A stretch of DNA of 38,714 bases, taken from positions 97,073 to 135,786 of the forward strand of contig METE01000004.1 in the NCBI GenBank assembly GCA_001771275.1, in the 5' to 3' direction. Positions 2,126 to 34,185 of the stretch are shown piece by piece. The DNA comes from a candidate division Kazan bacterium RIFCSPLOWO2_01_FULL_48_13. Lineage in GTDB: Bacteria; Patescibacteriota; Kazan-3B-28; UBA10110. The notes under the pieces were generated by a model. It worked only from the letters and a program-made list of their open reading frames with translations. It was not told where the DNA came from and did no database searches. Positions within the stretch are counted from its first letter, which is position 1. Each line of letters opens with the position of its first letter. The position numbers were made by a program, and so were the translations under genes.

Positions 2126-2561
2126 TGTACAAGACCCGAGAACGTATTCACCGTAGCATGGCTGATCTACGGTTACTAGCGATTCCGGCTTCATGCAGGC
2201 GGGTTTCAGCCTGCAATCCGAACTGAGACCGGTTTTCAGGGATTAGCTCCACCTCGCGGTTTGGCTACCCTCTGTGCCCGGCCATTGTAGCATGTGTGTC
2301 GCCCAGGCCATAAAGGCCACGCTGATTTGACGTCATCCCCGCCTTCCTCCTTGTTAACCAAGGCAGTCTCGTGTGAAAAATACAACACACAATGGGGGTT
2401 GCGCTCGTTACCCGACTTAACGGTACACCTCACGGCACGAGCTGACGACAACCGTGCAGCACCTGTCTATGCTGTCTCGAAAGAGGGCTCAAGTTTCCTT
2501 GAGCTTGCAACACGATGCAAGACCTGGTGAGGTTCCTCGCTTAGTATCGAATTAAACCACG

Positions 2562-2604
<43 letters not shown>

Positions 2605-2718
2605 TAACCTTGCGGCCGTACTCCCCAGGCGGGATACTTAACGCGTTAGCTACGGCACTGAGGGGACCGATGCCACCAATGCCTAGTATCCATCGTTTAC
2701 AGCGTGGACTACCGGGGT

Positions 2719-3734
2719 CAAACAGTATATTACTATACAGATTGGACTATATCATTCTCTGAACTTTGCTCTTTGTAGTTTTTCCACTTGGCTTTCTTCA
2801 GTTCATAGTACTGTTGCACTATTTCCAAAGAAAACTTAGAAAGAGCCGCGACTTCAGAGATCCAGCGTTGTTGAAGTTGATGATTGTGATACAGAAGAAT
2901 AAATTTTGGGATCATTTTTTCCACCGCCAGATGCGGTAGAATAATTCGCAGAAGTGATTGCAGTTGCTCGGAGGAGTTTAACCACAGCCGCACCTGATCA
3001 GGCCTTTGCCTGTTCTTGGGGGCGACAGTTGTCTCAATCTGCCAAACCACCTTCAAGTATTTCTGGAGTAAAGTTACACCCGGTTTGGTAAAACCATCCG
3101 TACAAATTACCCCTTTTCTGCCGTTAGCTATTATTGAGCCATCATCTTGCCACCAAATGGCCAGGGACAACGGGGTCAATAAATTAAGCCACTTCCTTCT
3201 GATCAAGAATTTACCGTGAGGATGAGTAAGTTTATAAAGTTCGGTGAGCGCTGGCAAAGCCAGGCTTTGGTACCTCCACTTTATTTTTCCCCATCCGTCT
3301 CGACCGTCCTTTGTTTGCCGCCACGAATTATTCTGAGAAGAGATTTCATTCAATTGTTTTACTTTCCAATCAAAGTAGCTCTTCTGTTTTTCGGAATGGC
3401 GAAACGAAAAACGGGCATTCACATAGGTCCGATGGACTTTTAACGATCCATCACCTAATATCGAGCCGAAAATAATCGCTCGAGCCGTTTCAGACAAGGG
3501 TATGATTTGCCTCATAATTTTGCAATTAATTGCTATACCCTCTGTCACAGTCAACTTCATAGTCTCTACGGGGTCAATACACGCTACGCGCGTACGACTT
3601 CCCTCGGGATTGTCCATCACGGGCCGGTAACCCGAATGTAATGGAGTTTCCCCGATACAGCTGAATGCTCATCTCGACGTCGCCGCCGAGAGGGACACCC
3701 TTCGTCACTATATTTAATGAGCGGTGACGGATTT
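2719..3734 (-). mobile_element. 1016-nt intron in 16S at the 785-806 site (E. coli about 794/795), carrying a double-motif LAGLIDADG gene
   Basis: GGAUUAGAU|...|ACCCCGGUAGUCC is split. Exon 1 ends in U and the insert ends ...CUGUUUG (omega-G-like, complement of c2719). It shares the 16-nt string CCCCGUAGAGACUAU-type P7 motif with the 1000-1252 intron (3559-3574 = 1069-1084). Confidence 0.8.
2733..3620 (-). CDS. LAGLIDADG homing endonuclease, two-motif (monomeric type); start uncertain (GTG 3620, ATG 3617 or ATG 3560)
   Basis: Motifs are IIFGSILGDGSL and LAIWWQDDGS. The stop is TAG at 2733-2735, only 14 nt before the intron 3' end. Confidence 0.8.
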   Translation of the reverse strand: MMDNPEGSRTRVACIDPVETMKLTVTEGIAINCKIMRQIIPLSETARAIIFGSILGDGSLKVHRTYVNARFSFRHSEKQKSYFDWKVKQLNEISSQNNSWRQTKDGRDGWGKIKWRYQSLALPALTELYKLTHPHGKFLIRRKWLNLLTPLSLAIWWQDDGSIIANGRKGVICTDGFTKPGVTLLQKYLKVVWQIETTVAPKNRQRPDQVRLWLNSSEQLQSLLRIILPHLAVEKMIPKFILLYHNHQLQQRWISEVAALSKFSLEIVQQYYELKKAKWKNYKEQSSENDIVQSV

Positions 3735-4125
3735 ATCTAATCCCGTTCGCTCCCCACGCTTTCGCTCCTTAGCGTCAGAAATGGCCCAGCAGACTGCCTT
3801 CGCCTTTGGTGTTCTTCTCGATATCTACGGATATTACCCCTACACCGAGAATTCCATCTGCCTCTACCATTCTCAAGATCAGCGGTTTCGAACACCCTTC
3901 TCCGGTTGAGCCGGAGTCTTTAATGTTCGACCTACTGGTCCGCCTACGAGCGCTCTACGCCCAATAAATCCGGATAACGCTCGAGCCCTACGTATTACCG
4001 CTGCTGCTGGCACGTAGTTAGCAGGCTCTTATTCTTACGGTACCGTCATAATCTTCCCATAAAAAAGAGGTTTACAATCCGAAGACCTTCATCCCTCACG
4101 CGGCATTGCTGCGTCAGACTTTCGT

Positions 4126-4188
<63 letters not shown>

Positions 4189-4614
4189 CTGGCTGGTCAT
4201 CCTCTCAGACCAACTATCGATCACAGCCTTGGTAGGCCATTACCCTACCAACTAGCTAATCGAACGCAGGCCACTCCTTGGGCGATAAATCTTTACTCAG
4301 CACTTATTTCAACAGACTAAAAATTAATCCACTGAAATAAGTGCTGAGACTATCGAGAATTATCCTGCCTTTCGGCAGGTTATGCTCGACCCAAGGGTAT
4401 GTTCCCACGCGTTACTCAGCCGTCTGCCGTGCACCCGAAGTGCACTCGACTTGCATGTGTTAGGCATGCCGCCGGCGTTAATCCTGAGCCAGGATCAAAC
4501 TCTCAAAAAAGTGAGTTCAGACTGCATAGCAGCTGACATCACTAAGAGTTAATCCACCCATCTCCAGTTTTGGAAAACTGGGGATGGGGAAATTGAATTT
4601 GAATTGATTGTGAG

Positions 4615-4638
4615 CACTTTTTAGTTACTCTCTGACTG
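4615..4638 (-). other. 5' strand of the 16S precursor processing stem
   Basis: cactttttagttactctctgactg pairs with 781-804, giving 24 bp with one G-U. This is the usual RNase III-type stem that brackets an rRNA. Confidence 0.7.
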
Positions 4639-4767
4639 TCAAGGTGGCGAGAAGCGTTAAAAAGAAAAACCCGGCCCTCTTTGGGCGCGGATCTCCATCG
4701 AACGACCGACTTGGAAATCCAGTTTTAGGTTGCTCCTTTTTAACTTAAGAATAAGCTAACTTCCGGT

Positions 4768-4795
4768 ATTATACCGAGTCCGCGCATTAAGTCAA
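4768..4795 (-). promoter_or_regulatory. Sigma-70-type promoter for the 16S gene
   Basis: On the minus strand: TTGACT (4795-4790), a 16-nt spacer, then TATAAT (4773-4768). It lies about 250 nt upstream of the mature 16S 5' end. Confidence 0.65.
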
Positions 4796-4825
4796 CCCCA
4801 GGGGGCGGACACAGATCTCCTCCTA

Positions 4826-4854
4826 TTGACAAAATCCGCTCTGAGAGCTATGAT
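4826..4854 (+). promoter_or_regulatory. Sigma-70-type promoter for the 4861 ORF (probably a leaderless mRNA)
   Basis: TTGACA (4826-4831), a 17-nt spacer, then TATGAT (4849-4854). The ATG at 4861 is only 6 nt after the -10 and has no SD. Confidence 0.6.
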
Positions 4855-4860
4855 CTTACT

Positions 4861-5790
4861 ATGTCAGAGAGCGGTGAATCACAATTGGGCAGCTGGTTGT
4901 CCCCCGAAGCGGACCTCCAGCCTCAGGTATCCGAACGAGTGGTTTTAGAAACTGACTGCGAGGGACATTTTAAGGACGGGATAAAAATCTTGCCCGCCTT
5001 TCGGATGTTGGAACAATTTACCGACCAAATGGTCAGTAGCGGAGAAATTCCCAGTCAATTTCATATGGCTATTGGCGACATGCTGCCCGCTGGTGTTAAC
5101 TACACCAGCCGATACGACCATATTAGTTCTACTCGCAAATTAGTACTGCATCTAAAAAACGGCATCACCATTACTGGAGAATCAGCGCCCTTGGAGTTAG
5201 TTGAGCAATCGGAACTATTTGGTCCCGTTGATACCTCACCCATCAACCCGGATAGAATTTTGTTGGATAAAGTCGCAATTCAAGAAATAATTCCCCAAGG
5301 GCCCAACATTCAATTTATTGATGCAGTGATCAAACCCCACTCCTACCAGCCTAAAGTACTGGCTGAGGCGATTCACACCATCACTGGCGATGACTATGTG
5401 CGACAAGGTATTAGTGATCGTTTTTATTTTAATCGCTCGCGCCTGCTCGAAGGTTTGGGACAGTTAGCCTATATTCATTTTCGAGAAAATATTAAGACCG
5501 CCAAACCCATGACCCCCTTCTTCGAAAAGGTGGATGGTTACTTTACTAAATACCAGCCACAGATCGGCGAAACGATCCATTATCAACTTAATCACTTCGA
5601 AGTCGATTTTACCGACCGAGGCGATAAAGGCAGCGGAATCATCTCCGGCTTAGTGATGGATGGCCACGGTACTCTGGTGATAGCTAAATTTACCGCTACG
5701 GTAGGAGCGGCCGAGCCAAGACGCTTAGAGAAAATAGCCGGCCTAGCCCATCGGCAATCTCTTAAATCCACCCCGCCCGAACAGATCTAA
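4861..5790 (+). CDS. Hypothetical protein with a possible C-terminal FabZ/FabA-like hotdog domain
   Basis: 309-aa ORF. The C-terminal pattern IQEIIPQGPNIQFIDAV ... LEGLGQLA ... KVDGYFTKYQPQIGETIHYQL resembles dehydratase hotdog motifs. The N-terminal half is not recognised. Confidence 0.4.
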   Translation: MSESGESQLGSWLSPEADLQPQVSERVVLETDCEGHFKDGIKILPAFRMLEQFTDQMVSSGEIPSQFHMAIGDMLPAGVNYTSRYDHISSTRKLVLHLKNGITITGESAPLELVEQSELFGPVDTSPINPDRILLDKVAIQEIIPQGPNIQFIDAVIKPHSYQPKVLAEAIHTITGDDYVRQGISDRFYFNRSRLLEGLGQLAYIHFRENIKTAKPMTPFFEKVDGYFTKYQPQIGETIHYQLNHFEVDFTDRGDKGSGIISGLVMDGHGTLVIAKFTATVGAAEPRRLEKIAGLAHRQSLKSTPPEQI

Positions 5791-7439
5791 GTTAAGGCGG
5801 ACTTGTCTTCCAACATTCCGTGAGCTTCGTGCTTGCGTTCTTTGGCGGTGACCGCAAATCCCAGATACTTGCCCAGCATCATTCGAGTTTCAGAATCAAG
5901 CGCCGGAATCGAACCAAAAATCACTCCAGAGATTGGCACAAATACCCACTGCAAGATCATTTCTAATCGTTTCCACCGAGGAAAGTGCTTGGGCATTGGT
6001 GGCAACAGGCCCTGGGCGATAATGGCCGAGACTATCACCCCAATCCAAGTAATACTCAAAAGATTGCGCGCTAACACCGGCAGGTTAAAGGCCAATACGG
6101 TTGTACGAAAATCAGGATTGAGGATCAGCGGCATCCATCCCCCCAAAGCGATCAGCAGCGACGAGGTGGACCAAGATACATGCCCTTCAAATGTTCTAAA
6201 AGGATGGATAATACGCTGATAGAATGTGAGTTGTCCGCGGGTTGAGAAAAACTTTTCCATTAAATACGGCAGGTGCTCGATCCCCCACGCCCAGCGGCGT
6301 TTTTGGATGTATTGTGCCTTCATCGTATCCCACACATCTTTGCCCAATACTGCGTCCATCGAGACCGGACTAAAGATGGGGATAGCCTTATGATTTCCGT
6401 TATATCTAAAGTAGGCCCGATAGAACTGGCGCGAGTCCTCCGACACGATGGTCCTGTCCCAAAAATCAATATCGACTAAGGTCTTAAGGCTCATTGCCTG
6501 TGAAGAGAAATTAATCAAGCGATACGGCCGGGTCGATTCGATCATCTGCCAATAAGAAGAGCCCAGGGCCACCAGCCGGTTAAGCACCGGCACATCCCAG
6601 AGATTGTTATTAAATAACGGGATGGGCTGATAACTCCGAAATGTGCGATCGGGATTTAGGATGTACTCGTAAGTAACATTGGCAAAATACTGCTTGGAGG
6701 GCAGCGTGTCGGCATCAAAACAGGAAACCATTACATTGTCGTAAGGCAGTCGGCGTTCGTCGATATATCGCTGCAACTCTGTGCCTGCGTGATAAACATT
6801 GGCGCCCTTGGCTTTTAACTCGCCCACGATGCCGTCGGGATGAACGGTAATGGTTACATCGGCAAAAATATTTTTAAATTCATCGGCCACCCGCTGGGCG
6901 ATGACCTGCGCCGGCTCACCGGCGCGCTCTTCGGTCGCCAATACGATTATCAGCTTATCTTTTGGATAGTTGCTGTTGGCGCAAGCTCGCAGCGAGGCAG
7001 ACACCACTTCGTCGCTTTCTTTATAGATAGCGTAGATAACAACATGCAGAATATCGTCCCACCGTTTCTGCGTCTCTGGCCGGGCTCGCATCTGCTCCAC
7101 CTGGGAGAGTTCTTCCCGCAACCGACTGGCCTCAAACCCACGGGCCAGCTGATATTTACGAGTTAGCTCATTCGCCCAGCTCTCCAAGTCGGTTGTTTTT
7201 TTACAACGCTCCAGCCAATCTATCCGGGTGCTCCGTTTTAGATGAACATATCCGGCAACCAGATGTCCGCCCATCACCAACGCCTTGGTCAGCCAATAGG
7301 TGTCAAACAGAATGATAAAATAGGCCACGCCGGCCGGCCAAACAAACGACAGCGCGATCGGCAAAAGCAGGATCGTCCAAGAGGTGATCCCGGGTAGCAT
7401 CTCCCAAAACCGATAGCTGTTAGTCCTTTTCATCGGCAC
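5787..7439 (-). CDS. Family 2 glycosyltransferase, membrane-embedded processive (cellulose/chitin-synthase-like) type
   Basis: 550 aa. It has FDADT and QKRRWAWG (QxxRW) motifs, with N-terminal and C-terminal transmembrane segments. Confidence 0.75.
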   Translation of the reverse strand: MPMKRTNSYRFWEMLPGITSWTILLLPIALSFVWPAGVAYFIILFDTYWLTKALVMGGHLVAGYVHLKRSTRIDWLERCKKTTDLESWANELTRKYQLARGFEASRLREELSQVEQMRARPETQKRWDDILHVVIYAIYKESDEVVSASLRACANSNYPKDKLIIVLATEERAGEPAQVIAQRVADEFKNIFADVTITVHPDGIVGELKAKGANVYHAGTELQRYIDERRLPYDNVMVSCFDADTLPSKQYFANVTYEYILNPDRTFRSYQPIPLFNNNLWDVPVLNRLVALGSSYWQMIESTRPYRLINFSSQAMSLKTLVDIDFWDRTIVSEDSRQFYRAYFRYNGNHKAIPIFSPVSMDAVLGKDVWDTMKAQYIQKRRWAWGIEHLPYLMEKFFSTRGQLTFYQRIIHPFRTFEGHVSWSTSSLLIALGGWMPLILNPDFRTTVLAFNLPVLARNLLSITWIGVIVSAIIAQGLLPPMPKHFPRWKRLEMILQWVFVPISGVIFGSIPALDSETRMMLGKYLGFAVTAKERKHEAHGMLEDKSALT

Positions 7440-7442
7440 CTA

Positions 7443-7829
7443 TTATGCTCCGATCATCACCAATGACAAGGTAATCCCAAATACGATCGTTTGAATAAAA
7501 AAGGTGGCACCCAACAACAGCCAGGCCGCCAACAGATCTTTCGGGTAGATTTTAAACACCAGCCAGGTATTAAAGGAGATTAGAGCCAAATTTACCAACG
7601 GCCACAACACATCCCCAATCCAGCTTAAGAATCCCAGGTCAAAACCCAGCGGCACCGTTAAAGCAATCGGGTAGGGCGCTACCCAGATTAGCCACAACAT
7701 CCAAGAGACAACATGCAACAGCCAGGCCAGATAGATAAATAGATAGAGATTCTTCTCGCGCCGCTTTAATCTCCCCCACTGGTAAAAGAAGTTGCGCCCG
7801 CCGCTCCATTCAAATAGTCTTACCTTCAT
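7443..7829 (-). CDS. Small integral membrane protein, hypothetical
   Basis: 128 aa with four hydrophobic segments. It ends 3 nt upstream of the GT2 start and is likely co-transcribed with it. Confidence 0.55.
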   Translation of the reverse strand: MKVRLFEWSGGRNFFYQWGRLKRREKNLYLFIYLAWLLHVVSWMLWLIWVAPYPIALTVPLGFDLGFLSWIGDVLWPLVNLALISFNTWLVFKIYPKDLLAAWLLLGATFFIQTIVFGITLSLVMIGA

Positions 7830-7930
7830 AACTTTATCTTAGCATTTAGTGGTTAGCGGTTAGAACACAATGAGCTTACGCCAAGACGCGGTGTTCCCCA
7901 TTCTCTATCCCCTAACCGCTATTCTCTGTT

Positions 7931-8446
7931 TTATTCGCTTTTAGAGATAAAGCTTGCCACAATCATAAACAACAGTGGCAGAATTAGAAACCACGAATAG
8001 AAGTTGACCAGCGGCGCGGCGATTAGTGATCCACTGATCACCTGCTGTTTGGTCTCGTCGGGCAGGAAATTAAGAATAGATGAAGCGATCAACGCAGCAT
8101 TTAACACACTGTAGCCGGCTTGCACCACAAAGCCCATCATTCCGCCACCGCCCATCGAGCCGTGGAGCATCAAACCCCCCTTCATCGCTATCAGCAACAG
8201 CACCGCGGCAAATAAAATAACTTTAACTACAAAAATGGATAGATTGCCACTCATCCAGCCGTTATTGATTACATCATTCTCTTGGGAGAGCATCGCAAAA
8301 GCGGAGGCGCCCCACTGGTTGGCGATCACCAGCCCAACATAGGCTCCCAGCAATGTAATAATAACTTTTTCCCGCCCCATCAAAAAACCGTAGACCAGGC
8401 TGGCCCCCAAAAACACTAACAGCACTAAATCCCAGGTAGGAACCAT
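7931..8446 (-). CDS. CvpA-like integral membrane protein
   Basis: It is hydrophobic throughout and has a CvpA-like N-terminus (WDLVLLVFLGASLVYGFLMG). The track ORF starts at TTG 8473 inside a dispersed repeat, so ATG 8446 is preferred. Confidence 0.5.
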   Translation of the reverse strand: MVPTWDLVLLVFLGASLVYGFLMGREKVIITLLGAYVGLVIANQWGASAFAMLSQENDVINNGWMSGNLSIFVVKVILFAAVLLLIAMKGGLMLHGSMGGGGMMGFVVQAGYSVLNAALIASSILNFLPDETKQQVISGSLIAAPLVNFYSWFLILPLLFMIVASFISKSE

Positions 8447-8625
8447 AGAATAACGCTTAGCGTTAATATCCAATGTTCAATTACTAATATACCAGAAAAC
8501 GCTACGCGTTAATATCCAATGCCCAATCCCCAATCACTGATTTAGTTATCCCACACTGGAGATTGGAGATTACGACGAAGCCGTTAATTGAATATTGGGT
8601 ATTGGACATTAGCCCTTTAGGGCTT

Positions 8626-9714
8626 TTAGAGCTCTTCGCCCAAGTCTTCGAGCAGCCGTTTTTGTTTGAGGGTCAGGTGTCTTGGAATAACGATCTCAAC
8701 TTTAACAAACAGATCGCCGTGGCCAGTTTGATCCAACCGGGGCAGGCCCTTGCCGCGCAATCTAAATACCTCTCCACCACCCGTTCCCGCCGGGATCTTT
8801 AAAGTCAGCCGTTCATCCAACGCATCGATCTTGATCTCCCCGCCCAGTACTGCTATGGGGTAGCTTAATCCCTCAGTGCGATAGAGATCGGCTCCCCGTC
8901 GTTCAAACCGCGAATCAGACAGCACCGTTACTACTATATATAGATCGCCGGATCGACCGCCACGCCAGCCCACTTCACCCTGGCCCGATAGTTTAATGGT
9001 TTGATTACTGTCAATTCCGGCGGGAATATCGACCTCGATGGTCTCTGACTTAGTTACCTTGCCATCGCCTCGGCAGGTCCGGCAGGCTTTAGCCGGTTTC
9101 TTACCGGTTCCCCGGCAGGTATCGCACATCTGCACCTGCGCAAAGGTGCCCAAGATGGTTCGCCGATTAACCCTGAGCTCGCCGTGGCCACCGCACTTAT
9201 CGCAAGTGGCCAGCTTGCCATCAGCAGCGCCACTACCGTGACAAACCTCGCAGATCCGAGAGCAATTGATCCCCATTTTCTTTTTGACGCCCTTGGCGGC
9301 TTCCGCGAAAGTCACTTGCAGGTGTCCCTCAATATCGCTTCCCCGATGAGCCTGTTCCGGGTTTCTCCGGCGCCGACCGCCGCCGCCAAAGAAAGCATCA
9401 AAGATATCTTCGAATCCTGCCATATCACCAAAATCTTGTGTAAAGCGAGAAAAATCTTCCGGCCTAAATCCGGAGAAGCCGCCGCGGGTGCTGCCATCAA
9501 AGGCTTGGCCATATTGATCGTACTGACGACGCTTAGATTCATTACCCAAAACCTGGTAAGCCTCATTTATTTCTTTAAATTTCTTCTCCCCCTCGGCATC
9601 CCCCTTGGTTTTATCCGGATGGTACTTTAAAGCCAGCTTGCGGTAAGCCTGCTTGATCTCCTCAGCAGTCGCTCCCTTGTTAATCCCTAATATTTGATAG
9701 TAATCTTTTGCCAT
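8626..9714 (-). CDS. dnaJ: Molecular chaperone DnaJ
   Basis: J domain (YYQILGI...HPDK), a G/F region, and four CxxCxGxG-type zinc motifs. Confidence 0.95.
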   Translation of the reverse strand: MAKDYYQILGINKGATAEEIKQAYRKLALKYHPDKTKGDAEGEKKFKEINEAYQVLGNESKRRQYDQYGQAFDGSTRGGFSGFRPEDFSRFTQDFGDMAGFEDIFDAFFGGGGRRRRNPEQAHRGSDIEGHLQVTFAEAAKGVKKKMGINCSRICEVCHGSGAADGKLATCDKCGGHGELRVNRRTILGTFAQVQMCDTCRGTGKKPAKACRTCRGDGKVTKSETIEVDIPAGIDSNQTIKLSGQGEVGWRGGRSGDLYIVVTVLSDSRFERRGADLYRTEGLSYPIAVLGGEIKIDALDERLTLKIPAGTGGGEVFRLRGKGLPRLDQTGHGDLFVKVEIVIPRHLTLKQKRLLEDLGEEL

Positions 9715-16177: not shown

Positions 16178-16717
16178 TCAATAATGCATACTGGAGGGAC
16201 GCTGCTGGCGGTGTTGAGGGAGGATCAGGCCAACGACAGACCACCAGACTAACATAAGCACCATGGCGATTACTGCCAACACCAACACTACGAGCCATAG
16301 CTCCGAGATCCATTGGCCAATTAACAGCCAGATAATCGACAGAGCTGCGGGTAGGGGTCGTTGCCACCATTTGGTAACTTCATTCGGGTAGCGCATATGG
16401 ATAATAACAGCATGGATTGCTGGAGGCACCATCTGGACCACACCAATCAGATACCAAAATGGCGAATAGCCCCATTTAAACAGCAACGGCCATGACCAAC
16501 CCAAAAGAATGCCACCGGTTAACAGCATCAGCCATGAGGCAACTACCCCGACAAAGAATAGGGTTATCTGATCCCAAAGCGGATCAAATGCTAAGTTGTT
16601 CTCTGGCGCTTCGAAAGATTGACGATATGGGCTCCGGATCACCGCTATCGCGACCGCCCATAATATTAGCAACAAGATTACTGCCAACAGGCAGCTCACG
16701 ATCACCGTATCCGACAT
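16178..16717 (-). CDS. Integral membrane protein, hypothetical
   Basis: 179 aa with 4-5 hydrophobic helices. It ends with TGA, which is rare in this window. The overlapping ORF 16101-16370 is judged spurious. Confidence 0.55.
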   Translation of the reverse strand: MSDTVIVSCLLAVILLLILWAVAIAVIRSPYRQSFEAPENNLAFDPLWDQITLFFVGVVASWLMLLTGGILLGWSWPLLFKWGYSPFWYLIGVVQMVPPAIHAVIIHMRYPNEVTKWWQRPLPAALSIIWLLIGQWISELWLVVLVLAVIAMVLMLVWWSVVGLILPQHRQQRPSSMHY

Positions 16718-26484: not shown

Positions 26485-26665
26485 ATTTTAGCTTTTGGCC
26501 TACCTTAAATTACGCTATGCTATTGAAGGAGACCTCCGGTCTAATGCCCAATATTCAATTTCCAATGGGACAACAGAAGCTATTGCTTTCCAATCATTGA
26601 ATATTAAACATTGGATGCTTGAGAATTGGATATGGGAGATTGGATATTAACGCGTAGCGTTTTAT

Positions 26666-26810
26666 GCCAGGGTAGCTTCCGCCGTCGTTCAATCTTATCG
26701 CAAATAGGTCATTAGCCTCTTGCGATATAGATATCACTATGGTGGACAGGCAGCGATAGCCTCCGGCCCAGAGGGCCTCCAGGCCCGGCGGGAGCAGTGG
26801 ACTCGCCCCG
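26666..26810 (+). pseudogene. tRNA-Met-like 5' part whose D loop is replaced by a 116-nt structured element (E1, 26678-26793)
   Basis: gccagggtagct + [tccgccg...cggcggga] + gcagtggactcg. The D stem is kept (GCUU/GAGC). It ends with ctcgccccg, which is complementary to 27017-27025. Confidence 0.5.
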
Positions 26811-26822
26811 ATTAAAAATTTT

Positions 26823-26922
26823 GCCAGGGTAGCTCAGTGGTAGAGCAGTGGGATTCACCCCGTTAGAAATTAGCCAGCGTAGCTCAGTGGTAGAGCAGTG
26901 GGATTCACCCCGTTAGAAATTA
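26823..26922 (+). repeat. Two tandem 50-nt units, each a tRNA-Met 5' half (30 nt) plus the tail attcaccccgttagaaatt
   Basis: Units are at 26823-26872 and 26873-26922. The third repeat phase starts the intact tRNA at 26923. Confidence 0.85.
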
Positions 26923-26997
26923 GCCAGCGTAGCTCAGTGGTAGAGCAGTGGACTCATAAGCCATTGGTCACAGGTTCGAATCCTGTCGCTGGCACCA
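26923..26997 (+). tRNA. tRNA-Met (CAU), CCA encoded
   Basis: Acceptor GCCAGCG/CGCUGGC, D arm GCUC-AGUGGUA-GAGC, anticodon loop CUCAUAA, T arm ACAGG-UUCGAAU-CCUGU, followed by ACCA. Confidence 0.88.
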
Positions 26998-27008
26998 AAA
27001 TTAGCTGG

Positions 27009-27066
27009 ATTTCTAACGGGGCGAGTAAGCCATTGGTCGTGAGTTCGAATCTCACCCCTGGCACCA
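27009..27066 (+). pseudogene. tRNA 3' half (anticodon loop to CCA) preceded by a 13-nt complement of the 5'-half tails
   Basis: atttctaacgggg (27009-27021) is the reverse complement of ccccgttagaaat. This is followed by cgag-taagccatt-ggtc-gtgag-ttcgaat-ctcac-ccctggc-acca. The acceptor strand pairs with gccaggg of 26666 and 26823, not with the intact tRNA. Confidence 0.6.
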
Positions 27067-27120
27067 GTAAAACAATAAAAAATATCAAATATAAAATAAA
27101 AAACCACCTCCCCCCTTGTC

Positions 27121-28561: not shown

Positions 28562-28646
28562 AATAATTCCTTTATAAATTAATGTGCTCGGTCCCCTACT
28601 CTTATTTTACCAAAAAATCAGGCCAAACTCGGTCTTCATAGCTATT

Positions 28647-28745
28647 TGGCTCCCCAGCTCGGTTCGGATTGCATTCCTACGCCAGCCCTCCGTAGTCCGT
28701 CAACTGACGGACGAAGGATGGGAGGAGATAATCTGGGACTTTCGA
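28647..28745. repeat. Cassette-boundary repeat, copy A (filled with a 45-nt hairpin module)
   Basis: 28655-28745 is identical to 30093-30183 over 91 nt. It lies just 3' of the minus-strand gene 28801-29826. Confidence 0.85.
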
Positions 28746-28800: not shown

Positions 28801-29826
28801 CTACGATCTCTCAACATGCCGAACCATAAAATTGACCGTTTCGTTCACATTAACCGGCTCAATTACAATATTCGGATGTTTATTTTGAAAAATTCGGAAT
28901 ATTTCATCAGCAAAGGCCTGCCCAATATTTGGCACCTTTTCAAAATCCAAGACGATCCTTTTGAACTTGTCTAAGCCGGTTAAGATCCGCCGCGCTTGAG
29001 ACCTCGAAACATAGACCGTCCCCATGGTGAAAAGCCTGACATGAATTTCAGTTTTATCAAAAGCATAGCTCCCCGGTTTGGACTGATACTTTTCAAAAAT
29101 CTTATTAAGATGTCTATCACTATTCCGACTAATTGAAAAGACAACTCGAGTTCCCCTAATAGATGTTTCAGTCTTATTGAAAAAAATATCTGGAATGATA
29201 TTGTCCACTACCATCTCGTATCCAAAGCTCTCGAGTGCAAATCTATCAGCCGCCTGGGATGTAAAGAAAATTCCTTCGCCTGTGTGAGCTTTCGGGTCCG
29301 TTGTCAATTTCCCCTTCAATAAGTCTTGCATGGCCTCCAATTCTAACTTTAGCCCCCTTTCTTTCATCACTTTAAGAAAGACTCCCACACCAAAGTCCTG
29401 TACGCTAAACTTAATTTGGTCTAATGCGTCTTCTAACTGAACTTCAATGAGCTTCGATCCGGAGTGTTCGATAGCATTATTTAACATTTCTGAAAAAGCA
29501 TAATGGACAATACTTTTAACATTCTCCGGAGCTGTGCGGAAAGCTGGACAAGCGTCAATCAAATTATCAAATACTTCGTGCTCTTTGATGTCTCGGTTGA
29601 CCAGCTTTTTGGTAACGGCCGAAGCACCAATCTTATTAATCAAATCGGGTAAGGTGTAAAAAGCTGCCCTCGTAGAACCAAATTTCACTACTTTCCCTTC
29701 GTTGACTAGGATACGTAAAATCTGGCTAGCTCGTTGTCTGCTGAACTGAAAATTCCTAGCCACCTCGGGAGATGTCACCCGTTCCTTTTCTCGAATAAAT
29801 TCAGTTACCTGAGATTTGATATCCAT
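28801..29826 (-). CDS. wHTH + histidine-kinase-like ATPase (anti-sigma/RsbW-like) + C-terminal STAS-like (DUF4325-type) protein
   Basis: N-terminal wHTH (SPEVARNFQFSRQRASQILRILVNEGKV). N-box-like EMLNNAIEHS and G1-like QDFGVGV. C-terminal block RRILTGLDKFKRIVLDFEKVPNIGQAFADEIFRIF. The gene is AT-rich. Confidence 0.6.
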   Translation of the reverse strand: MDIKSQVTEFIREKERVTSPEVARNFQFSRQRASQILRILVNEGKVVKFGSTRAAFYTLPDLINKIGASAVTKKLVNRDIKEHEVFDNLIDACPAFRTAPENVKSIVHYAFSEMLNNAIEHSGSKLIEVQLEDALDQIKFSVQDFGVGVFLKVMKERGLKLELEAMQDLLKGKLTTDPKAHTGEGIFFTSQAADRFALESFGYEMVVDNIIPDIFFNKTETSIRGTRVVFSISRNSDRHLNKIFEKYQSKPGSYAFDKTEIHVRLFTMGTVYVSRSQARRILTGLDKFKRIVLDFEKVPNIGQAFADEIFRIFQNKHPNIVIEPVNVNETVNFMVRHVERS

Positions 29827-29928: not shown

Positions 29929-30084
29929 ACGGTGATTTAGGCACCTCGGTCACTTTACTCGTTTTTGTTTGGCCCCGTTAGCATTCCTTACTGTAAAACG
30001 GATTCCATCCTGTTATTACAGTAGCGTCAGCTCCGGGACGCACCTGTCTGGCTCTTCTGTCGGATGACAGATGTCGCCAACATG

Positions 30085-30210
30085 TGGCTCAACAGCTCGG
30101 TTCGGATTGCATTCCTACGCCAGCCCTCCGTAGTCCGTCAACTGACGGACGAAGGATGGGAGGAGATAATCTGGGACTTTCGAAAGGGAGCTCGGGTAAG
30201 TGGGTCAGTT
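30085..30210. repeat. Cassette-boundary repeat, copy B (filled)
   Basis: The left part equals copy A. The right part, aagggagctcgggtaagtgggtcagtt, equals copy C. It lies just 3' of the fic gene. Confidence 0.85.
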
Positions 30211-30296: not shown

Positions 30297-31184
30297 CTAT
30301 TTGCCCTCAAAATCCTCGCTGATCTTCCAAACACCCTTTTCTCTGAAAGCAGGAATATTCTGTCGGCGTGCGGCATTTGTGATTGCGGATGCAGATTTAG
30401 CGTGGCTTTTTGTGTATTCGGAAAGCCGAATAACTTTGCCGCCTTTGAGATACGTAATGCGCTTATGAAGCGACTCCATCAAGCCAAGAGAGACTACCTT
30501 TTCAAGAGTTTTGGTATTTTTGTCGTCACGATAATCGCCAAAGGACTTGTAGTATTCTTTTTTCTCACGGTCCCGAATGATAATAATCGGGAAACCGAGA
30601 CACTGAAGCTGGTAAGAGATCAACACGCGGCCAATACGACCGTTGCCATCGCAGAACGGATGGGTAGTTTCAAAATCCAAATGGAACTTGGCAATCTTGT
30701 CTAAAAAGTAAGCAGACATATCGCTCGTATATTCGGTGATAGTAGAAGCAATCAGTTTCTCCACTTGTTCCGGAGCAGGAGCAACGTGCGTACCGACTCG
30801 GACATATTCGCCCGGGCCACGAAAGCGTCCAGCGATCTTGTCATCAATACCGCCAATCAGCATCTGATGCAAAAGTAATATAAGCTCCCTGTTTACTTCC
30901 GTCTCTTTTGATTTGGTGCGAATGTAGTCGATAACTCGAGCGAGATTTTTTGCTTCATACACTTCACGCAAAGAAACACCTCGAGCGACCTCCATATCCA
31001 AAAGAATCTTCTCGGTCTCCTTGAGAGTGAGGGTGGAGTTTTCAATAGCGTTGGAGTTGTAAACACTCTCCGATACTTCCACCTCATCGATCATGACCAA
31101 AAGCGAATCCTTGCCTTTGCGGAGGACGTCATACTGGGCCTTGAGAGCCTGAATCCGATCTTTGATTGGTTTTGTTATAGCCAT
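30297..31184 (-). CDS. fic: Fic family protein (AMPylase-type), class II with an N-terminal inhibitory helix
   Basis: Catalytic loop HPFCDGNGRIGR (HxFx[D/E]GNGRxxR). An upstream S-N-A-I-E-N matches the [S/T]xxxE[G/N] inhibitory motif. There is a C-terminal HTH-like tail. Confidence 0.85.
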   Translation of the reverse strand: MAITKPIKDRIQALKAQYDVLRKGKDSLLVMIDEVEVSESVYNSNAIENSTLTLKETEKILLDMEVARGVSLREVYEAKNLARVIDYIRTKSKETEVNRELILLLHQMLIGGIDDKIAGRFRGPGEYVRVGTHVAPAPEQVEKLIASTITEYTSDMSAYFLDKIAKFHLDFETTHPFCDGNGRIGRVLISYQLQCLGFPIIIIRDREKKEYYKSFGDYRDDKNTKTLEKVVSLGLMESLHKRITYLKGGKVIRLSEYTKSHAKSASAITNAARRQNIPAFREKGVWKISEDFEGK

Positions 31185-31585: not shown

Positions 31586-31605
31586 TGGCTCCCGGGGTCG
31601 GACTC
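31586..31605 (-). repeat. Direct copy of the last 20 nt of tRNA-Asn (T-loop to CCA)
   Basis: tggctcccggggtcggactc is identical to 33651-33670 and 33435-33454. Confidence 0.9.
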
Positions 31606-31674
31606 CCGCCGGCGTTCAATCTCATTCAAAGTAGATCATCTGTCTCTTTGAATGTAGATATCACTTTGGCGGAC
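31604..31674. ncRNA. Structured element E2, homolog of E1 (26678-26747); function unknown
   Basis: The conserved flanks cgttcaatct and tagatatcact.tgg.ggac enclose a hairpin. The hairpin sequence differs between copies (tatcgcaa/ttgcgata vs cattcaaag/ctttgaatg) but the pairing is kept. Confidence 0.5.
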
Positions 31675-31783
31675 CTTGCTCCCCTCTTGCTTCGGAACAT
31701 CAGCTGTTCCTTCGCATCGGTTCTCGCTCAGACCTCATCAACAAATCGTTCCCTAGCCCCGATTATATCGGGGCGACGGACGA

Positions 31784-31866
31784 TGGCTCAACAGCTCGGT
31801 CCAGATTGCATTCCCAAGGAGATAATCTGGGACTTTTGAAAGGGAGCTCGGGCAAGTGGGTCAGTT
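31784..31866. repeat. Cassette-boundary repeat, copy C (unfilled)
   Basis: It matches copy B on both sides but has 'ca' where A and B carry the 45-nt hairpin module. It lies 3' of the DGR template repeat. Confidence 0.8.
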
Positions 31867-31935
31867 ATGGAATCTTGAGAGAAAGGAACAAACAAAAACT
31901 CTCCCGACCAGAAAGTCGAGAGAGAAACGAAGAGA

Positions 31936-32072
31936 GTTGCGGCGACGGAAGACAAAGCGGTTGTTGCCATTCCAGTGGTTGTCGGGGTTGTCCCAATTCG
32001 TATTGAGCCAACGGTCGTTGTCGTCGTGTTCGACGTTGAACACGTTCGGATTGCCGTCGGAATCGGTATTGT
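31936..32072 (-). repeat. DGR template repeat (TR), including a 3' IMH*-like segment (31936-31955)
   Basis: See the VR feature. The coding-strand adenine-rich copy translates as ...NTDSDGNPNVFNVEHDDNDRWLNTNWDNPDNHWNGNNRFVF with many AAY codons. It is not preceded by a credible gene start. Confidence 0.9.
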
Positions 32073-32330
32073 GCGAGATATTATCCATAAGCACCACCCC
32101 TTGATTCTACTTTTGTGGCAGAAGTCTTAGAGTTGAATTTTATTCGGCATCTATAATGCCTGAATATCTCGCACCAAGTATCTTCATTTTTTGAAGTTTC
32201 TGCATACAACCTCTATTCCAAACCTTAGTCGGGAATACTCTCATTGTATGGATACTGGGTTCGGCAGCCAGAAACCTTGATCGCTGGCATATTCGCCTAG
32301 TTCCATGAATAGTTTACCAAATTTGAAACA

Positions 32331-32362
32331 TAAAAAGAGGCCGTGCTCCGGAGAGCACGGCC
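32331..32362 (-). terminator. Rho-independent terminator of the DGR target gene
   Basis: ggccgtgctc-cgga-gagcacggcc (32339-32362), followed on the minus strand by tcttttta. Confidence 0.65.
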
Positions 32363-32426
32363 AAAGGACAAAGGGTCAAGGGTCAAGGACCCAAGAGAAC
32401 CATGGGTCCAAAACCCAAAGTCCAAG

Positions 32427-33113
32427 TTACTTGCGACGCAGGAACACCCAGCGGCCGTCGCCATCCCAGCGGTAGCCGGGGCGGGCCCAACGCGTATAGA
32501 GCCAACGGACGCGGTCGGCGTGCCCGACGCTGAACACGCCCGGACGGCCGTCGGAAGCGGTAATGGTCTCCATCGCCATGATGAGGACCTCGCCGACTGG
32601 CTGGTCAGGGTACTGCTTCCGTAGTTCGGGGCCAGCCCAAGCTGGAATGAGCTCACCGTTCACGTTATGAATACCTTCGTAGATCTCCGCCGTGGTCGGT
32701 CTCTCTTTGCTAGTCAGCTCCGTACCAGAAGCGATGACCAGCTCCAGGGTAGTGATGTCGAAGCCCTTCTTGAAGCCGGCCTTCTTCATGATATCAGCCG
32801 CCCAGTCGCCGATTCGAAAGCCACCCGCCTTCAAATCGGCAGTATAGCTATTGGCATCGTCGCAGGTACGGGTCAGCACCTTCCACGTCGGTCGCTGTAT
32901 CAGGGGGAGACGCAGAGCCTGTTCCTCGGCCAGACGGCTGAGGAAGCTGTACCACTCCTCGCTGAAATTGGGGTGGCCCATAGCCAACTGCGCCCGTTCT
33001 GTGCCACCCTTGTACTTGCGGGTGGCATCCTCGACCTGTCGGCCGAGCTGTCTGGCCACACCATCCGAGGTGGGCTGAGTTTCGACAGTTCCAGAAGTAC
33101 TCTGATTTGACAT
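32427..33113 (-). CDS. DGR variable (target) protein, 229 aa, with VR at the C-terminus
   Basis: The ATG at 33113 has AGGAG 7 nt upstream. The track ORF runs to 33209 without an SD. The last about 45 codons are the variable repeat. The stop is TAA at 32427-32429. No signal peptide was seen. Confidence 0.8.
   Translation of the reverse strand: MSNQSTSGTVETQPTSDGVARQLGRQVEDATRKYKGGTERAQLAMGHPNFSEEWYSFLSRLAEEQALRLPLIQRPTWKVLTRTCDDANSYTADLKAGGFRIGDWAADIMKKAGFKKGFDITTLELVIASGTELTSKERPTTAEIYEGIHNVNGELIPAWAGPELRKQYPDQPVGEVLIMAMETITASDGRPGVFSVGHADRVRWLYTRWARPGYRWDGDGRWVFLRRK
32430..32566 (-). repeat. DGR variable repeat (VR), including a 3' IMH-like segment (32430-32449)
   Basis: Hand alignment of 32450-32566 with TR 31956-32072 (constant offset 494, no indels). 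All 79 positions that are not A in the TR coding strand are identical. Of the 38 TR adenines, 27 are substituted in the VR. The next 20 nt are 13/20 identical, with mismatches at non-A positions. Confidence 0.9.
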
Positions 33114-33434
33114 CAGGTATCTCCTATTGGTTCGCCTTATTGTTAAGGCGTTGATGGGTGATTTCCCTGAAGTATTCAGGGGCCATCGAACACCCCTAGG
33201 ATAGCACAAAAACCATCCTTTGTAAAGGAGATTTTATGCTCTGGAGGCATATTTCTACTAATCCGCCCTAATCCTCGGGGAGCTGGACTTTGGGTAGTTT
33301 CCATGACTTAACTAGAGCTTTTGCCCAACGGGGCAAAGCGGTTTAGAACCATTTTAAGGAGTAAACCAAAACAACCTATCTGGGTCATTTTGGCTTTCAT
33401 CACCCCAAAGGAGGGGTTCGATAACTGTCCTAGT

Positions 33435-33612
33435 TGGCTCCCGGGGTCGGACTCCGTCCGTCAGATGACGGACTAGAACCGGTCGGGGTTCGGGCTGCCT
33501 CACCCCTCTTCAGAACCTTGCGGTTCCGACGCCCGCTAAAGCGGTCTGCCTCCACCACGGGAAAACTCCCGTTTTCCCGACCCCTTTCCCACGGTTCGAG
33601 TCCAACCACAAA
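33435..33612 (-). other. Degenerate tRNA-Asn-like / structured RNA segment ending in the tRNA-Asn 3' terminus
   Basis: It ends with the 20-nt tRNA-Asn 3' copy (33435-33454). The T loop is interrupted by the hairpin cgtccgtcagatgacggac. Upstream are several GNRA-type hairpins (ggaacc-gcaa-ggttc). There is no intact cloverleaf. Confidence 0.4.
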
Positions 33613-33617
33613 CTATG

Positions 33618-33648
33618 AAAAAGCGTCACGAAATTCGTGCCGCTTTTT
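33618..33648 (-). terminator. Hairpin terminator directly after tRNA-Asn
   Basis: On the minus strand: aaaaagcggcacg-aattt-cgtgacgcttttt. There is one internal mismatch. Confidence 0.6.
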
Positions 33649-33650
33649 CA

Positions 33651-33725
33651 TGGCTCCCGGGGTCGGACTCGAACCGACAACCAATCGCTTAACAGGCGAT
33701 CGCTCTGCCATTGAGCTACCCGGGA
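33651..33725 (-). tRNA. tRNA-Asn (GUU), CCA encoded
   Basis: UCCCGGG-UA-GCUC-AAUGGCA-GAGC-G-AUCGC-CUGUUAA-GCGAU-UGGUU-GUCGG-UUCGAGU-CCGAC-CCCGGGA-G-CCA. Confidence 0.9.
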
Positions 33726-33774
33726 ATGATAAACTTTTTGCGAAAGTTAATGTCCAATATCCAATGTCCAATAA

Positions 33775-34152
33775 TCAGGTAGTGGGAATTTTGGCTACCA
33801 TTTTGTTTTTGATCGTCGCCAGTATTTTAACGATTTCTTGGCCCTCCGTAAATACCTCATCCAGAGCAGAAAAATCCAATAACTTTCTACCCCTCAGTAT
33901 CCTTAACCAATACAGGGTTTCTTTGGCTTCTTTAAGGCTAATTGATAATTTGTGGATAAAATCCCGGTCCGACTGGGCCTCGCTGGCTTCCATCATATTA
34001 GCAGCGATCGAAGTAGCCGAACGCACCAACTGGCCAATCAGGGGACGCGATTTAAAATCCAACGCCACACCGTCAGTCAATGTCAGGACCAGATTAGCGA
34101 ACACCTCGCAACGATCATAGATATCAATTTTACTTCCCGCTCTTTCCCCCAT
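33775..34152 (-). CDS. Four-helix-bundle protein (23S rRNA intervening-sequence protein family); candidate DGR accessory protein Avd
   Basis: IGQLVRSATSIAANMMEASEAQSDRDFIHKLSISLKEAKETLYWLRIL is the family signature. It is on the same strand as the target and TR, 0.66 kb upstream of the target gene. It is flanked by CCAAT/ATTGG-rich inverted arms. Confidence 0.6.
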   Translation of the reverse strand: MGERAGSKIDIYDRCEVFANLVLTLTDGVALDFKSRPLIGQLVRSATSIAANMMEASEAQSDRDFIHKLSISLKEAKETLYWLRILRGRKLLDFSALDEVFTEGQEIVKILATIKNKMVAKIPTT

Positions 34153-34185
34153 TGGATATTGGAGATTGGATATTAGATTAAAAGA

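Follow-up and report, generated by a model that had tools for sequence, protein, structure and literature searches.

A probable DGR remnant, without reverse transcriptase, beside the tRNA-Asn gene of a Kazan-division bacterium

A cassette near the tRNA-Asn gene of a candidate division Kazan bacterium, a member of the CPR, carries the target gene and template repeat (TR) of a DGR, and no reverse transcriptase (RT) accompanies it in the window, by which we mean the whole 38,714-nt stretch analysed here. We consider it probable (about 70%) that the locus is the remnant of a DGR whose RT and accessory gene were lost by clean deletion, in a stretch prone to recombination; ordinary decay appears to account for it, without a new mechanism. 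The cassette and its downstream boundary comprise the following features, with related loci designated by handles such as L010.

33114 to 33434, minus strand: conserved cassette leader, 92% identical to L010 and to L015/L017
33226 to 33198, minus strand: promoter-like site in the leader (TTTACA, 17 nt, TATCCT; promoter scan)
32427 to 33113, minus strand: intact DGR target gene (228 aa), with the VR at the C-terminus
32424 to 32565, minus strand: VR, the C-terminal part of the target gene, forming one 142-nt repeat pair with the TR
32339 to 32362, minus strand: terminator-like hairpin 3' of the target gene (z = -5.5)
31930 to 32071, minus strand: TR, its body 97.5% identical to the L010 TR
31899 to 31924, minus strand: hairpin and T-run 6 nt past the TR, in relatives also spanning the 3' end of the antisense avd
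31867 to 31898, minus strand: deletion junction, at which about 1.45 kb of L010 (11211 to about 12650) is missing, namely bAvd, RT and about 40 nt past the RT
31784 to 31866, minus strand: boundary repeat in its short ('unfilled') form, with the end sequence CCGAGCTGTTGAGCCA; its counterpart in L010 and L017 directly follows the RT gene

The first-pass annotation had reported that the 38.7 kb hold no RT, and this was borne out by Pfam searches of the 41 ORFs of at least 80 aa, by tblastn of the window with two related DGR RTs and their Avds, which detected neither protein, and by a profile of 120 CPR DGR RTs run against the six-frame translation, in which the best E-value was 5.4 (positive controls, 1e-176). 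No frame of the window holds a remnant of RT or avd. An RT gene immediately beyond the window would have made the cassette an ordinary DGR with unusual spacing; contigs reaching 10 kb past each window end contain no RVT_1 gene, and about 58 kb of contiguous sequence is free of any RT. The group II intron at the window start was rejected as a hidden RT, since its D1-D4 match (1815-1902) adjoins a LAGLIDADG ORF and not an RT, and the closest RT homologue, P0016, comes from another genome and is not the window genome's own. The PF05635 gene at 33775-34152 was dismissed as the Avd of the DGR because relatives keep it next to rpoD whether or not they have a DGR: it has this position both in L010, which possesses a true bAvd besides, and in L022-L024, in which gene calling yielded no DGR gene. 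The true bAvd (PF22296) lies between TR and RT in L010, L012, L013, L017 and L026 and is absent from the window.

Two relatives show what is missing. Between 33440 and 31890 the window and L010 align with 90.7% identity, after which L010 continues with bAvd, RT (RVT_1) and a boundary repeat homologous to that at 31784-31866. L017, from the Kazan division, shares the window's wider gene order (fic, DUF378, DivIC, tRNA-Met, TilS, FtsH, MurJ) and has target, bAvd, RT, a boundary-like repeat and fic in succession. The layout in both is target, TR, hairpin, antisense bAvd, RT and boundary repeat, and the order target, TR, antisense avd, RT is found likewise in L012, L013 and L026. In the window the boundary repeat follows about 30 nt past the post-TR hairpin. 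The earlier suggestion that the RT was lost holds up in this form, since in both relatives bAvd and RT occupy precisely the interval from the TR hairpin to the boundary repeat. It is hardly credible that the RT-less arrangement is instead an assembly error, through a collapsed repeat or a chimeric contig: repeats abound here, and several assemblies are broken near the non-coding segment E1 (see below), but every contig that extends as far as the RT-less junction, six independent ones from different samples and assemblers, has it in identical form, so it is not an assembly artefact. In those six contigs the sequence running from the 3' flank of the TR into the boundary repeat, the structured segment E2 and the 20-mer beyond it are identical as well.

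We propose that the locus began as a phage-derived DGR with the order usual in CPR bacteria (target with the VR at its C-terminus, terminator, TR, hairpin, antisense bAvd, RT), and that a single deletion of about 1.45 kb, from the post-TR hairpin to just before the boundary repeat, took bAvd and RT. Left behind would be a target gene that is intact and probably expressed, its VR frozen, together with a TR no longer reverse-transcribed locally. Among the relatives, IMG/VR lists the contig of L013 with the viral genomes, homologous phage genes lie upstream of the DGR in L017, and the DGR of L010, a 3.08-kb cassette, is bounded by 113-nt repeats that are 99% identical.

In the body of the repeat pair, mismatches occur exclusively at TR adenines, indicating that an RT once acted on the window's VR; roughly 30 VR positions correspond to TR adenines. 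Over the last 22 nt of the TR (31930-31951), TR and VR of the window disagree at 6 positions, all of them non-adenine, which breaks the TR/VR identity through the GC-rich 3' element near the homing site, whereas in RT-bearing relatives this element is identical (L010, L013) or has one difference (L012). Because the TR changes are clustered in these 22 nt and not evenly spread, they suggest a recombination patch rather than slow decay. A search of JGI metagenomes for this unusual TR 3' allele gave no match, hence no second copy, and a TR-family pattern search of the same metagenomes recovered only the contig of L010, one L012-like contig and a short relative, L028. The VR nucleotide sequence is identical in nine assemblies, compared as assembly consensus in contigs picked by exact protein identity and in several cases probably from one aquifer site, so that minor read-level variants would not show; the 90%-identity cluster of the target protein has a single member. 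L005 was rejected as a diverged strain for judging VR stasis, as it carries the same cassette (1 mismatch) and only the 3' half of its fic gene has been replaced by recombination. The target protein has no Pfam match, and outside the VR its gene differs from that of L010 by 32 synonymous and 13 non-synonymous codon changes.

Could the cassette still be active, with a DGR RT (and Avd) encoded elsewhere in the genome using the TR in trans and the VR still diversifying? Such activity would fit the body mismatches, which lie at adenines without non-adenine drift, and the fact that the TR body and the VR-TR spacer (96.2%) are the parts best conserved relative to L010; moreover, target ORF, promoter-like site and terminator are intact, and CPR genomes abound in DGR RTs (7836 homologues at E <= 1e-40). 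We nevertheless regard it as unlikely, given an invariant VR for which the protein collection holds no near-identical variant, a TR 3' element altered where that of RT-bearing relatives matches the VR, the loss of the element's own Avd as well, the RT-free 58 kb and the lack of a second copy of the TR 3' allele in the JGI metagenomes. We infer that probably no RT acts on the cassette in trans, and a recently frozen fossil is the reading that fits the cassette best. A point against a fossil is that the TR body is without decay, and the loss is therefore recent or the TR is still under selection.

The surroundings of the cassette bear on how it came to lie here, and contain these further features.

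33651 to 33725, minus strand: tRNA-Asn (GTT) gene (ARAGORN; Rfam, 70.9 bits), whose last 20 nt (33651-33670) are 20-mer copy 1 (pattern search)
33455 to 33650, minus strand: E1, 196-nt non-coding segment between tRNA-Asn and copy 2 (fold z = -4.3)
33615 to 33650, minus strand: tRNA terminator hairpin at the start of E1 (terminator/hairpin prediction)
33435 to 33454, minus strand: 20-mer copy 2, left junction of the DGR cassette (GAGCCA followed by ACTAGGACAGTTATCGAACC)
31606 to 31783, minus strand: E2, 178-nt structured non-coding segment (fold z = -3.6)
31586 to 31605, minus strand: 20-mer copy 3 (pattern search)
30297 to 31184, minus strand: fic gene, the next module, adjoining the DGR in L017 too (86% nucleotide identity)
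30082 to 30210, minus strand: boundary repeat, 'filled' form, with a 43-nt palindromic insert (repeat comparison)
28801 to 29826, minus strand: HATPase_c_2/DUF4325 gene, a further module (domain search)
28644 to 28745, minus strand: boundary repeat, 'filled' form, ending CCGAGCTGGGGAGCCA before AATAG

An exact pattern search confirmed that the 20-mer TGGCTCCCGGGGTCGGACTC occurs three times, as had been noticed at first reading; none is expected by chance in the window, which holds no further near-match at up to 3 mismatches. All three copies begin at the same T-loop position, and the one inside the tRNA-Asn gene is its 3' end, from T-loop position 57 to the encoded CCA. They lie in the same sense as the TR, and on the plus strand each is the perfect complement of the tRNA-Asn 3' end including CCA. 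Direct repeats of the 3' part of the tRNA are present at the ends of the putative island. At relaxed thresholds, the tRNA was the sole Rfam match between 28500 and 33800. The textbook model of tRNA islands expects the native terminator after the distal repeat; in the window a native-looking terminator still stands behind the real tRNA-Asn.

All module junctions lie just after GAGCCA, and the left arms are interchangeable between genomes at one and the same junction: to the left of GAGCCA/A(A/C)TA(G/A)GACAGTTATCGAAC the window has the exact 20-mer, L010 the 3' end of a boundary repeat and L017 a degenerate tRNA-like end. The hairpin that stands behind tRNA-Asn in the window comes after a boundary repeat in L016. 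Genes for large serine recombinases end inside tRNA-Asn in L010 and L023; the two proteins are 26% identical (E = 6e-44) and share the C-terminal end WLP..DSN..PI, which the antisense strand of the tRNA gene encodes. No integrase or recombinase was detected in the window by Pfam searches of its ORFs or by tblastn, and a weak tblastn match upstream of copy 2, taken up as a possible recombinase remnant, proved to be merely the antisense tRNA peptide WLPGSDS. The first-pass annotation had called for a search for an empty tRNA-Asn site in related genomes; L010, L022/L023 and L024 all have differing cargo behind tRNA-Asn, and an unoccupied site was not recovered. A pattern search for the boundary repeat in 185,579 representative genomes matched three genomes only, the window's own not among them, and the same pattern found nothing in viral contigs.

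The extra 20-mers are most likely scars of recombination sites. The region from tRNA-Asn to about 28644 would be a mosaic in which the modules E1, DGR, E2, fic and HATPase/DUF4325 were joined just past a GAGCCA core, provided either by the tRNA-Asn 3' end or by the look-alike that ends each boundary repeat. The two extra copies would represent half-sites left over from a series of site-specific integration events, in which the enzymes were probably large serine recombinases of the kind that relatives still have beside tRNA-Asn. The putative attB (tRNA-Asn 3' half plus ACTAGGACAGTTATCGAACC) is only a reconstruction, and the boundary repeat plus AATAGGATAAGTAGCC is a candidate attP. Points against this origin are that the window holds no recombinase, that the search for an empty site recovered none, and that the native-looking terminator has kept its place behind the real tRNA. 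As a cassette within a mosaic of inserted modules that starts at tRNA-Asn, the locus agrees with the earlier proposal of a tRNA-Asn-linked island.

Two other readings of the 20-mers turn on the RT. In the first, put forward as speculation in the first-pass annotation, the TR transcript would run to 31586, and its tRNA-like ...GAGUCCGACCCCGGGAGCCA end would recruit an RT or prime it. The 20-mer does lie in the TR sense as an exact copy of the tRNA end, and E2 folds well, but a conserved terminator-like hairpin with a T-run is predicted 6 nt past the TR, about 290 nt before the 20-mer, with homologous hairpins bearing compensatory changes in L010, L012, L013 and L028. Moreover, the RT-bearing L010 and L017 have no E2 and 20-mer after the TR (E2 is absent between RT and fic in L017), and both elements lie beyond the boundary repeat, which intact relatives have downstream of their RT gene. 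By alignment, the E2 hairpin module (31606-31675) also recurs at 26672-26741 and in L017 at 16237-16310, beside tRNA-Met fragments far from and unrelated to any DGR, and the 20-mer copy has no 5' acceptor strand, so that no tRNA-like fold can form. Such a handle is therefore extremely improbable. In the second, the former RT would have retro-copied tRNA ends, its cDNA primed by or template-switched onto tRNA-Asn in the manner of a retroviral primer-binding site. The perfect plus-strand complementarity to the tRNA 3' end and an RT once active at the locus speak for it, yet the same junction has non-tRNA left arms in relatives, serine recombinases stand at tRNA-Asn in two of them, similar tRNA-Met end fragments occur away from any DGR, and the copy begins at T-loop position 57, which is not a known RT stop. 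We hold this to be very unlikely.

It is also conceivable, if distinctly improbable, that E1, E2 and the boundary repeats are not scars but have functions of their own, as small RNAs, 3' UTRs or terminator modules, and only resemble a tRNA end. E1 and E2 fold far better than shuffled sequence, compensatory changes occur among E1 variants and among copies of the E2 hairpin module, and every boundary repeat lies just downstream of a gene. The 5' half of E1, a segment at which contigs break, varies between strains (three variants and an N-run in the NCBI record), and the variants keep their hairpins, which hints at function beyond a scar. However, E1 as a conserved RNA amounts to 2 covarying pairs among only 3 sequences, there is no Rfam match, the boundary repeat lacks a fold of its own (z = +0.4), which also led us to discard a tRNA-like or attC-like fold for it as no better than shuffled sequence, and the elements mark the exact points at which gene content differs between genomes.

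The locus resembles canonical DGRs of the Bordetella phage BPP-1 type in its TR and VR of about 140 nt with adenine-specific differences and in a VR at the C-terminus of a small target protein; its family occurs on phage (L013) and on CPR chromosomes, with bAvd and a DGR-clade RT beside the TR in relatives. It differs in lacking RT and its own Avd, in the broken 3' GC-rich TR/VR identity and in its invariant VR. Among tRNA-gene genomic islands, a T-loop sublocation class flanked by direct repeats of the tRNA 3' end has reportedly been distinguished, and the window shares with such islands the exact direct repeats from T loop to CCA, the tandem inserted modules, the gene content that varies beside the tRNA among relatives and the recombinase genes that abut the tRNA there. 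In contrast to them, the window has no integrase, the recombinases of relatives are of the large serine type and not the usual tyrosine integrases, two of the window's 'islands' are only 178-196 nt long and non-coding, and several junctions use the tRNA-end look-alike in place of tRNA sequence. CIMEs, the cis-mobilizable elements known from ICESt1 and ICESt3 of Streptococcus thermophilus, accrete as islands at one attachment site; like them, the window has recombinase-less modules with att-like repeats in tandem at one site, apparently through repeated integration without excision, but it lacks conjugation and recombination genes, its core mimics a tRNA 3' end, and the mobility of its modules is putative. 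The window resembles an integron cassette array in its row of single-gene modules, behind each of which stands one of a set of related 85-130-nt repeats, and in the boundary-repeat end GTTGAGC, which fits the attC R' consensus GTTRRRY; unlike integrons, the window has no IntI tyrosine recombinase (no Phage_integrase match in its ORFs), its modules have their own promoters, the boundary repeats are without attC-like two-fold symmetry or fold, and the tRNA-type cores contain no GTT.

More tentatively, tRNA-Asn in this Kazan/CPR lineage might anchor an integron-like array in which large serine recombinases stack modules by way of a GAGCCA core that mimics the tRNA 3' end, the whole DGR being one movable cassette. 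The modules of such an array, on this still doubtful reading, would be promoter-bearing single genes (DGR, fic, HATPase/DUF4325, restriction enzymes and others) together with non-coding mini-elements of 180-200 nt.

Published surveys of DGRs, including those of CPR genomes, begin from the RT (Paul et al. 2017; PMC8144416; PMC5758913); they miss cassettes that have lost it, and RT-less remnants are not catalogued there. Here such a loss is documented, with two relatives that reveal where the deletion begins and ends, and the locus indicates that a diversified target gene can stay intact, and frozen, once its mutator is lost. It bears on the persistence of DGR-made variants and on how often counts of CPR DGRs miss past activity. 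If the junctions are indeed recombination sites, small CPR genomes would swap accessory genes at a tRNA-Asn hot spot through serine recombinases and repeats that look like tRNA ends, and this side result may be of wider use than the DGR remnant itself.

The window is part of the chromosome of a CPR (Patescibacteria) bacterium and carries dnaK/dnaJ/grpE/hrcA, lepA, ftsH, tilS, murJ, rpoD, dnaG and a 16S rRNA gene with insertions; it is at least 99.7% identical to NCBI GCA_001772265.1 METC01000020.1, and the nearest named relative is 'candidate division Kazan bacterium RIFCSPHIGHO2_01_FULL_44_14'. The 16S rRNA (2075-4510) is 2436 nt long, compared with 1533 nt for the model, and a LAGLIDADG_2 ORF (2733-3620) lies within it; a group II intron D1-D4 match (1815-1902) adjoins a LAGLIDADG_1 ORF (1345-1884), both (1345-1902) probably lying inside a 23S rRNA gene. 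The DGR cassette and its flanks, on the minus strand beside tRNA-Asn, comprise:

33651-33670, minus strand, 3' end of tRNA-Asn(GTT), copy 1 of the 20-mer
33455-33650, structured non-coding segment E1
from 33435, copy 2 of the 20-mer
32427-33113, minus strand, target gene (228 aa) with the variable repeat (VR) at its C-terminus
32424-32565, VR
31930-32071, template repeat (TR)
31866-31784, minus strand, unfilled boundary repeat
31606-31783, structured non-coding segment E2
from 31586, copy 3 of the 20-mer, followed by fic

To locate a reverse transcriptase (RT), we searched the 41 ORFs of the window with Pfam (no RVT_1), ran tblastn with the RTs and Avds of two related DGRs (no RT or Avd) and applied a profile of 120 CPR DGR RTs to the six-frame translation, which gave a best E of 5.4 in the window and 1e-176 for the positive controls L010 and L017 (loci of relatives). 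These searches bear out the first-pass annotation that the 38.7 kb hold no RT. Nor does one lie just beyond, as the 10 kb past each end, taken from other contigs of the same organism, contain only housekeeping genes or genes without a reverse-transcriptase domain.

TR and VR form a 142-nt repeat in which all mismatches in the repeat body fall at TR adenines. The target ORF is intact, has predicted promoter-like and terminator-like sites, and differs from that of L010 outside the VR by 32 synonymous and 13 non-synonymous codon changes. Its protein has only 14 homologues, the closest (86% identity) being on L010, which has dnaG, rpoD, the PF05635 gene and tRNA-Asn in common with the window. In L010 a 6.5-kb insert separates tRNA-Asn from the DGR cassette, with L010 9673-11210 matching window 33440-31890 at 90.7% nucleotide identity; beyond the end of this match follow an antisense bAvd (PF22296; bAvd/avd, a DGR accessory gene), an RT (RVT_1) and a homologue of the window boundary repeat. 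L017, from the Kazan genome named above, has the other flank in common with the window (fic, 86%; DUF378, DivIC, tRNA-Met genes, TilS, FtsH and MurJ) and is ordered target, bAvd, RT, boundary-like repeat, fic, and the loci L012, L013 and L026 show the L010 order of target, TR, antisense avd and RT. These RT-bearing layouts show that the window lineage lost approximately 1.45 kb carrying avd and RT. The left deletion end lies directly past a hairpin that also spans the avd stop codon, the right end ~40 nt beyond the RT stop. All six independent contigs that extend this far share one and the same RT-less junction, which rules out an assembly error. At another related locus (L028 1876-1995), similarity to L010 is lost ~12 codons into the avd 3' end, and the sequence holds AATTAAGACAGTTAG, resembling the left-junction motif of the cassette; this may be an independent rearrangement, and the contig ends soon after.

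The TR body is 97.5% identical to that of L010, but over the last 22 nt of the TR identity drops to 73%. In this GC-rich 3' element TR equals VR in L010, L012 (one difference) and L013, while the window TR has six non-adenine differences from its own VR. Such damage, being clustered and not evenly spread, suggests that recombination or repair replaced a patch in connection with the deletion, and argues less for slow decay. The VR is identical at the nucleotide level in nine assemblies, as judged from assembly sequences of contigs picked by exact protein identity and including L005 (the same cassette with a recombined fic), and the 90%-identity cluster of the target protein has one member. The L005 breakpoint lies inside fic, whose 3' half is ~16% diverged, mostly at every third base (window 30306-30702; L005 3297-4850); past fic, L005 has a different 441-aa gene without Pfam match.

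The proposed order downstream of the TR (unfilled boundary repeat, E2, 20-mer copy 3, fic) is present in full, preceded by a terminator-like hairpin and T-run 6 nt past the TR that is kept in relatives with compensatory changes. L010 has no E2 or 20-mer past the TR, and L017 has neither between RT and fic. Moreover, E2 contains a ~70-nt hairpin module (31606-31675) with further copies, both adjoining a tRNA-Met end fragment, at 26672-26741 and L017 16237-16310. These results speak against the earlier suggestion that the TR transcript ends in a tRNA-like 3' handle, and the module belongs to a tRNA-associated repeat family and not to the DGR. Its flanks are conserved (CGTTCAATCT ... TAGATATCAC) and its stem varies by compensatory changes; the abutting tRNA-end fragments are the Asn 3' 20-mer, a Met 5' 12-mer or a Met 3' 17-mer. 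The tRNA-Met region itself is nested (26660-27070): besides one complete gene (26923-26997) it holds three partial 5' halves, of which one has a ~115-nt insert, and a 3' half that stands apart and ends at 27066. The acceptor strand of this 3' half (CCCTGGC) pairs with GCCAGGG in the 5' half at 26823, the flanks CCCCGTTAGAAAT and ATTTCTAACGGGG complement each other, and the Kazan genome has a similar layout (L017 16220-16475). Either a tRNA that is split or interrupted or scars of integration could account for this. Five tRNAs in the window have a CAT anticodon.

A pattern search confirmed three exact copies of the 20-mer TGGCTCCCGGGGTCGGACTC where chance would give none, and detected no near-matches; one copy is the genuine tRNA-Asn end, reaching from T-loop position 57 to the encoded CCA. 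Three copies of the boundary repeat lie in the window, each directly downstream of a minus-strand gene, and the end of the repeat, CCGAGCTG(TT/GG)GAGCCA, is similar to the tRNA-Asn end CCGACCCCGGGAGCCA. In L010 the whole DGR is bracketed by two 113-nt boundary repeats (99% identical) whose likeness to the tRNA end continues beyond CCA (GAGCCAAATAGGA). The left junction of the cassette always reads GAGCCA, then A(A/C)TA(G/A)GACAGTTATCGAAC (window, L010 and L017), and to its left lies the exact 20-mer (window), a boundary repeat (L010) or a degenerate tRNA-like end (L017); in another relative, L016, a boundary repeat precedes the hairpin that in the window comes after tRNA-Asn. Large serine recombinase genes in L010 and L023, homologous over their full length, have as their last 14 codons the antisense of tRNA-Asn, and the window has no recombinase. 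The tRNA T arm joined to the cassette leader gives GGTTCGA...GAGCCA...TCGAACC, with terminal inverted repeats (GGTTCGA/TCGAACC) as would be expected of a serine-recombinase attB site. Each relative examined has different gene content past tRNA-Asn, and E1 is a place where assemblies break or vary. Interchangeable left arms, recombinases at tRNA-Asn, variable gene content and the E1 breaks together support a recombination hot spot joining modules at a tRNA-end-like core, in which the extra 20-mers would be half-site scars.

E1 is a population-level hot spot directly after tRNA-Asn: its 5' half exists in at least three strain versions, with hairpins kept in each, positions 33501-33591 are Ns in the NCBI record, and E1 holds the start or end of several contigs. 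The palindrome GTCCGTCANNTGACGGAC has four copies, all in 27-34 kb (27250, 28695, 30133 and 33456), two being the 43-nt inserts that make a boundary repeat 'filled'; none of the other loci examined showed it. The L010 insert (3024-9685) encodes a large serine recombinase, a 1086-aa Eco57I-like restriction-modification protein and an HTH_17 protein, with the 113-nt boundary repeat at its end. The Avd-like PF05635 gene ('23S rRNA intervening sequence protein') adjoins rpoD both in relatives that have a DGR and in those that lack one, and has inverted repeats on both sides (33749-33773 and 34150-34177) rich in TTGGATATTGGA motifs, similar to motifs before tRNA-Asn in the related loci L023 and L024.

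Of the proposed island at tRNA-Asn with its RT lost or acting in trans, the loss holds, avd and RT being kept at the same place in L010 and L017, and tRNA-linked island accretion fits the repeats better than an integron or retro-copy origin. The cassette is probably phage-derived: IMG/VR lists L013, a contig with the same DGR family and two targets, as a viral genome, and homologous phage genes lie upstream of the DGR in L017. The locus descends from, and is built like, a canonical DGR, but falls short of a functional one: it lacks an RT and an Avd of its own, its 3' identity element is broken, and no diversification was observed. Two DGR surveys (PMC5758913, PMC8144416) take the RT as their organising feature and, in the passages covered, make no mention of remnants without an RT. 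The remnant is new as an example, not in kind, and the cassette-array lead is the part of the locus most worth following.
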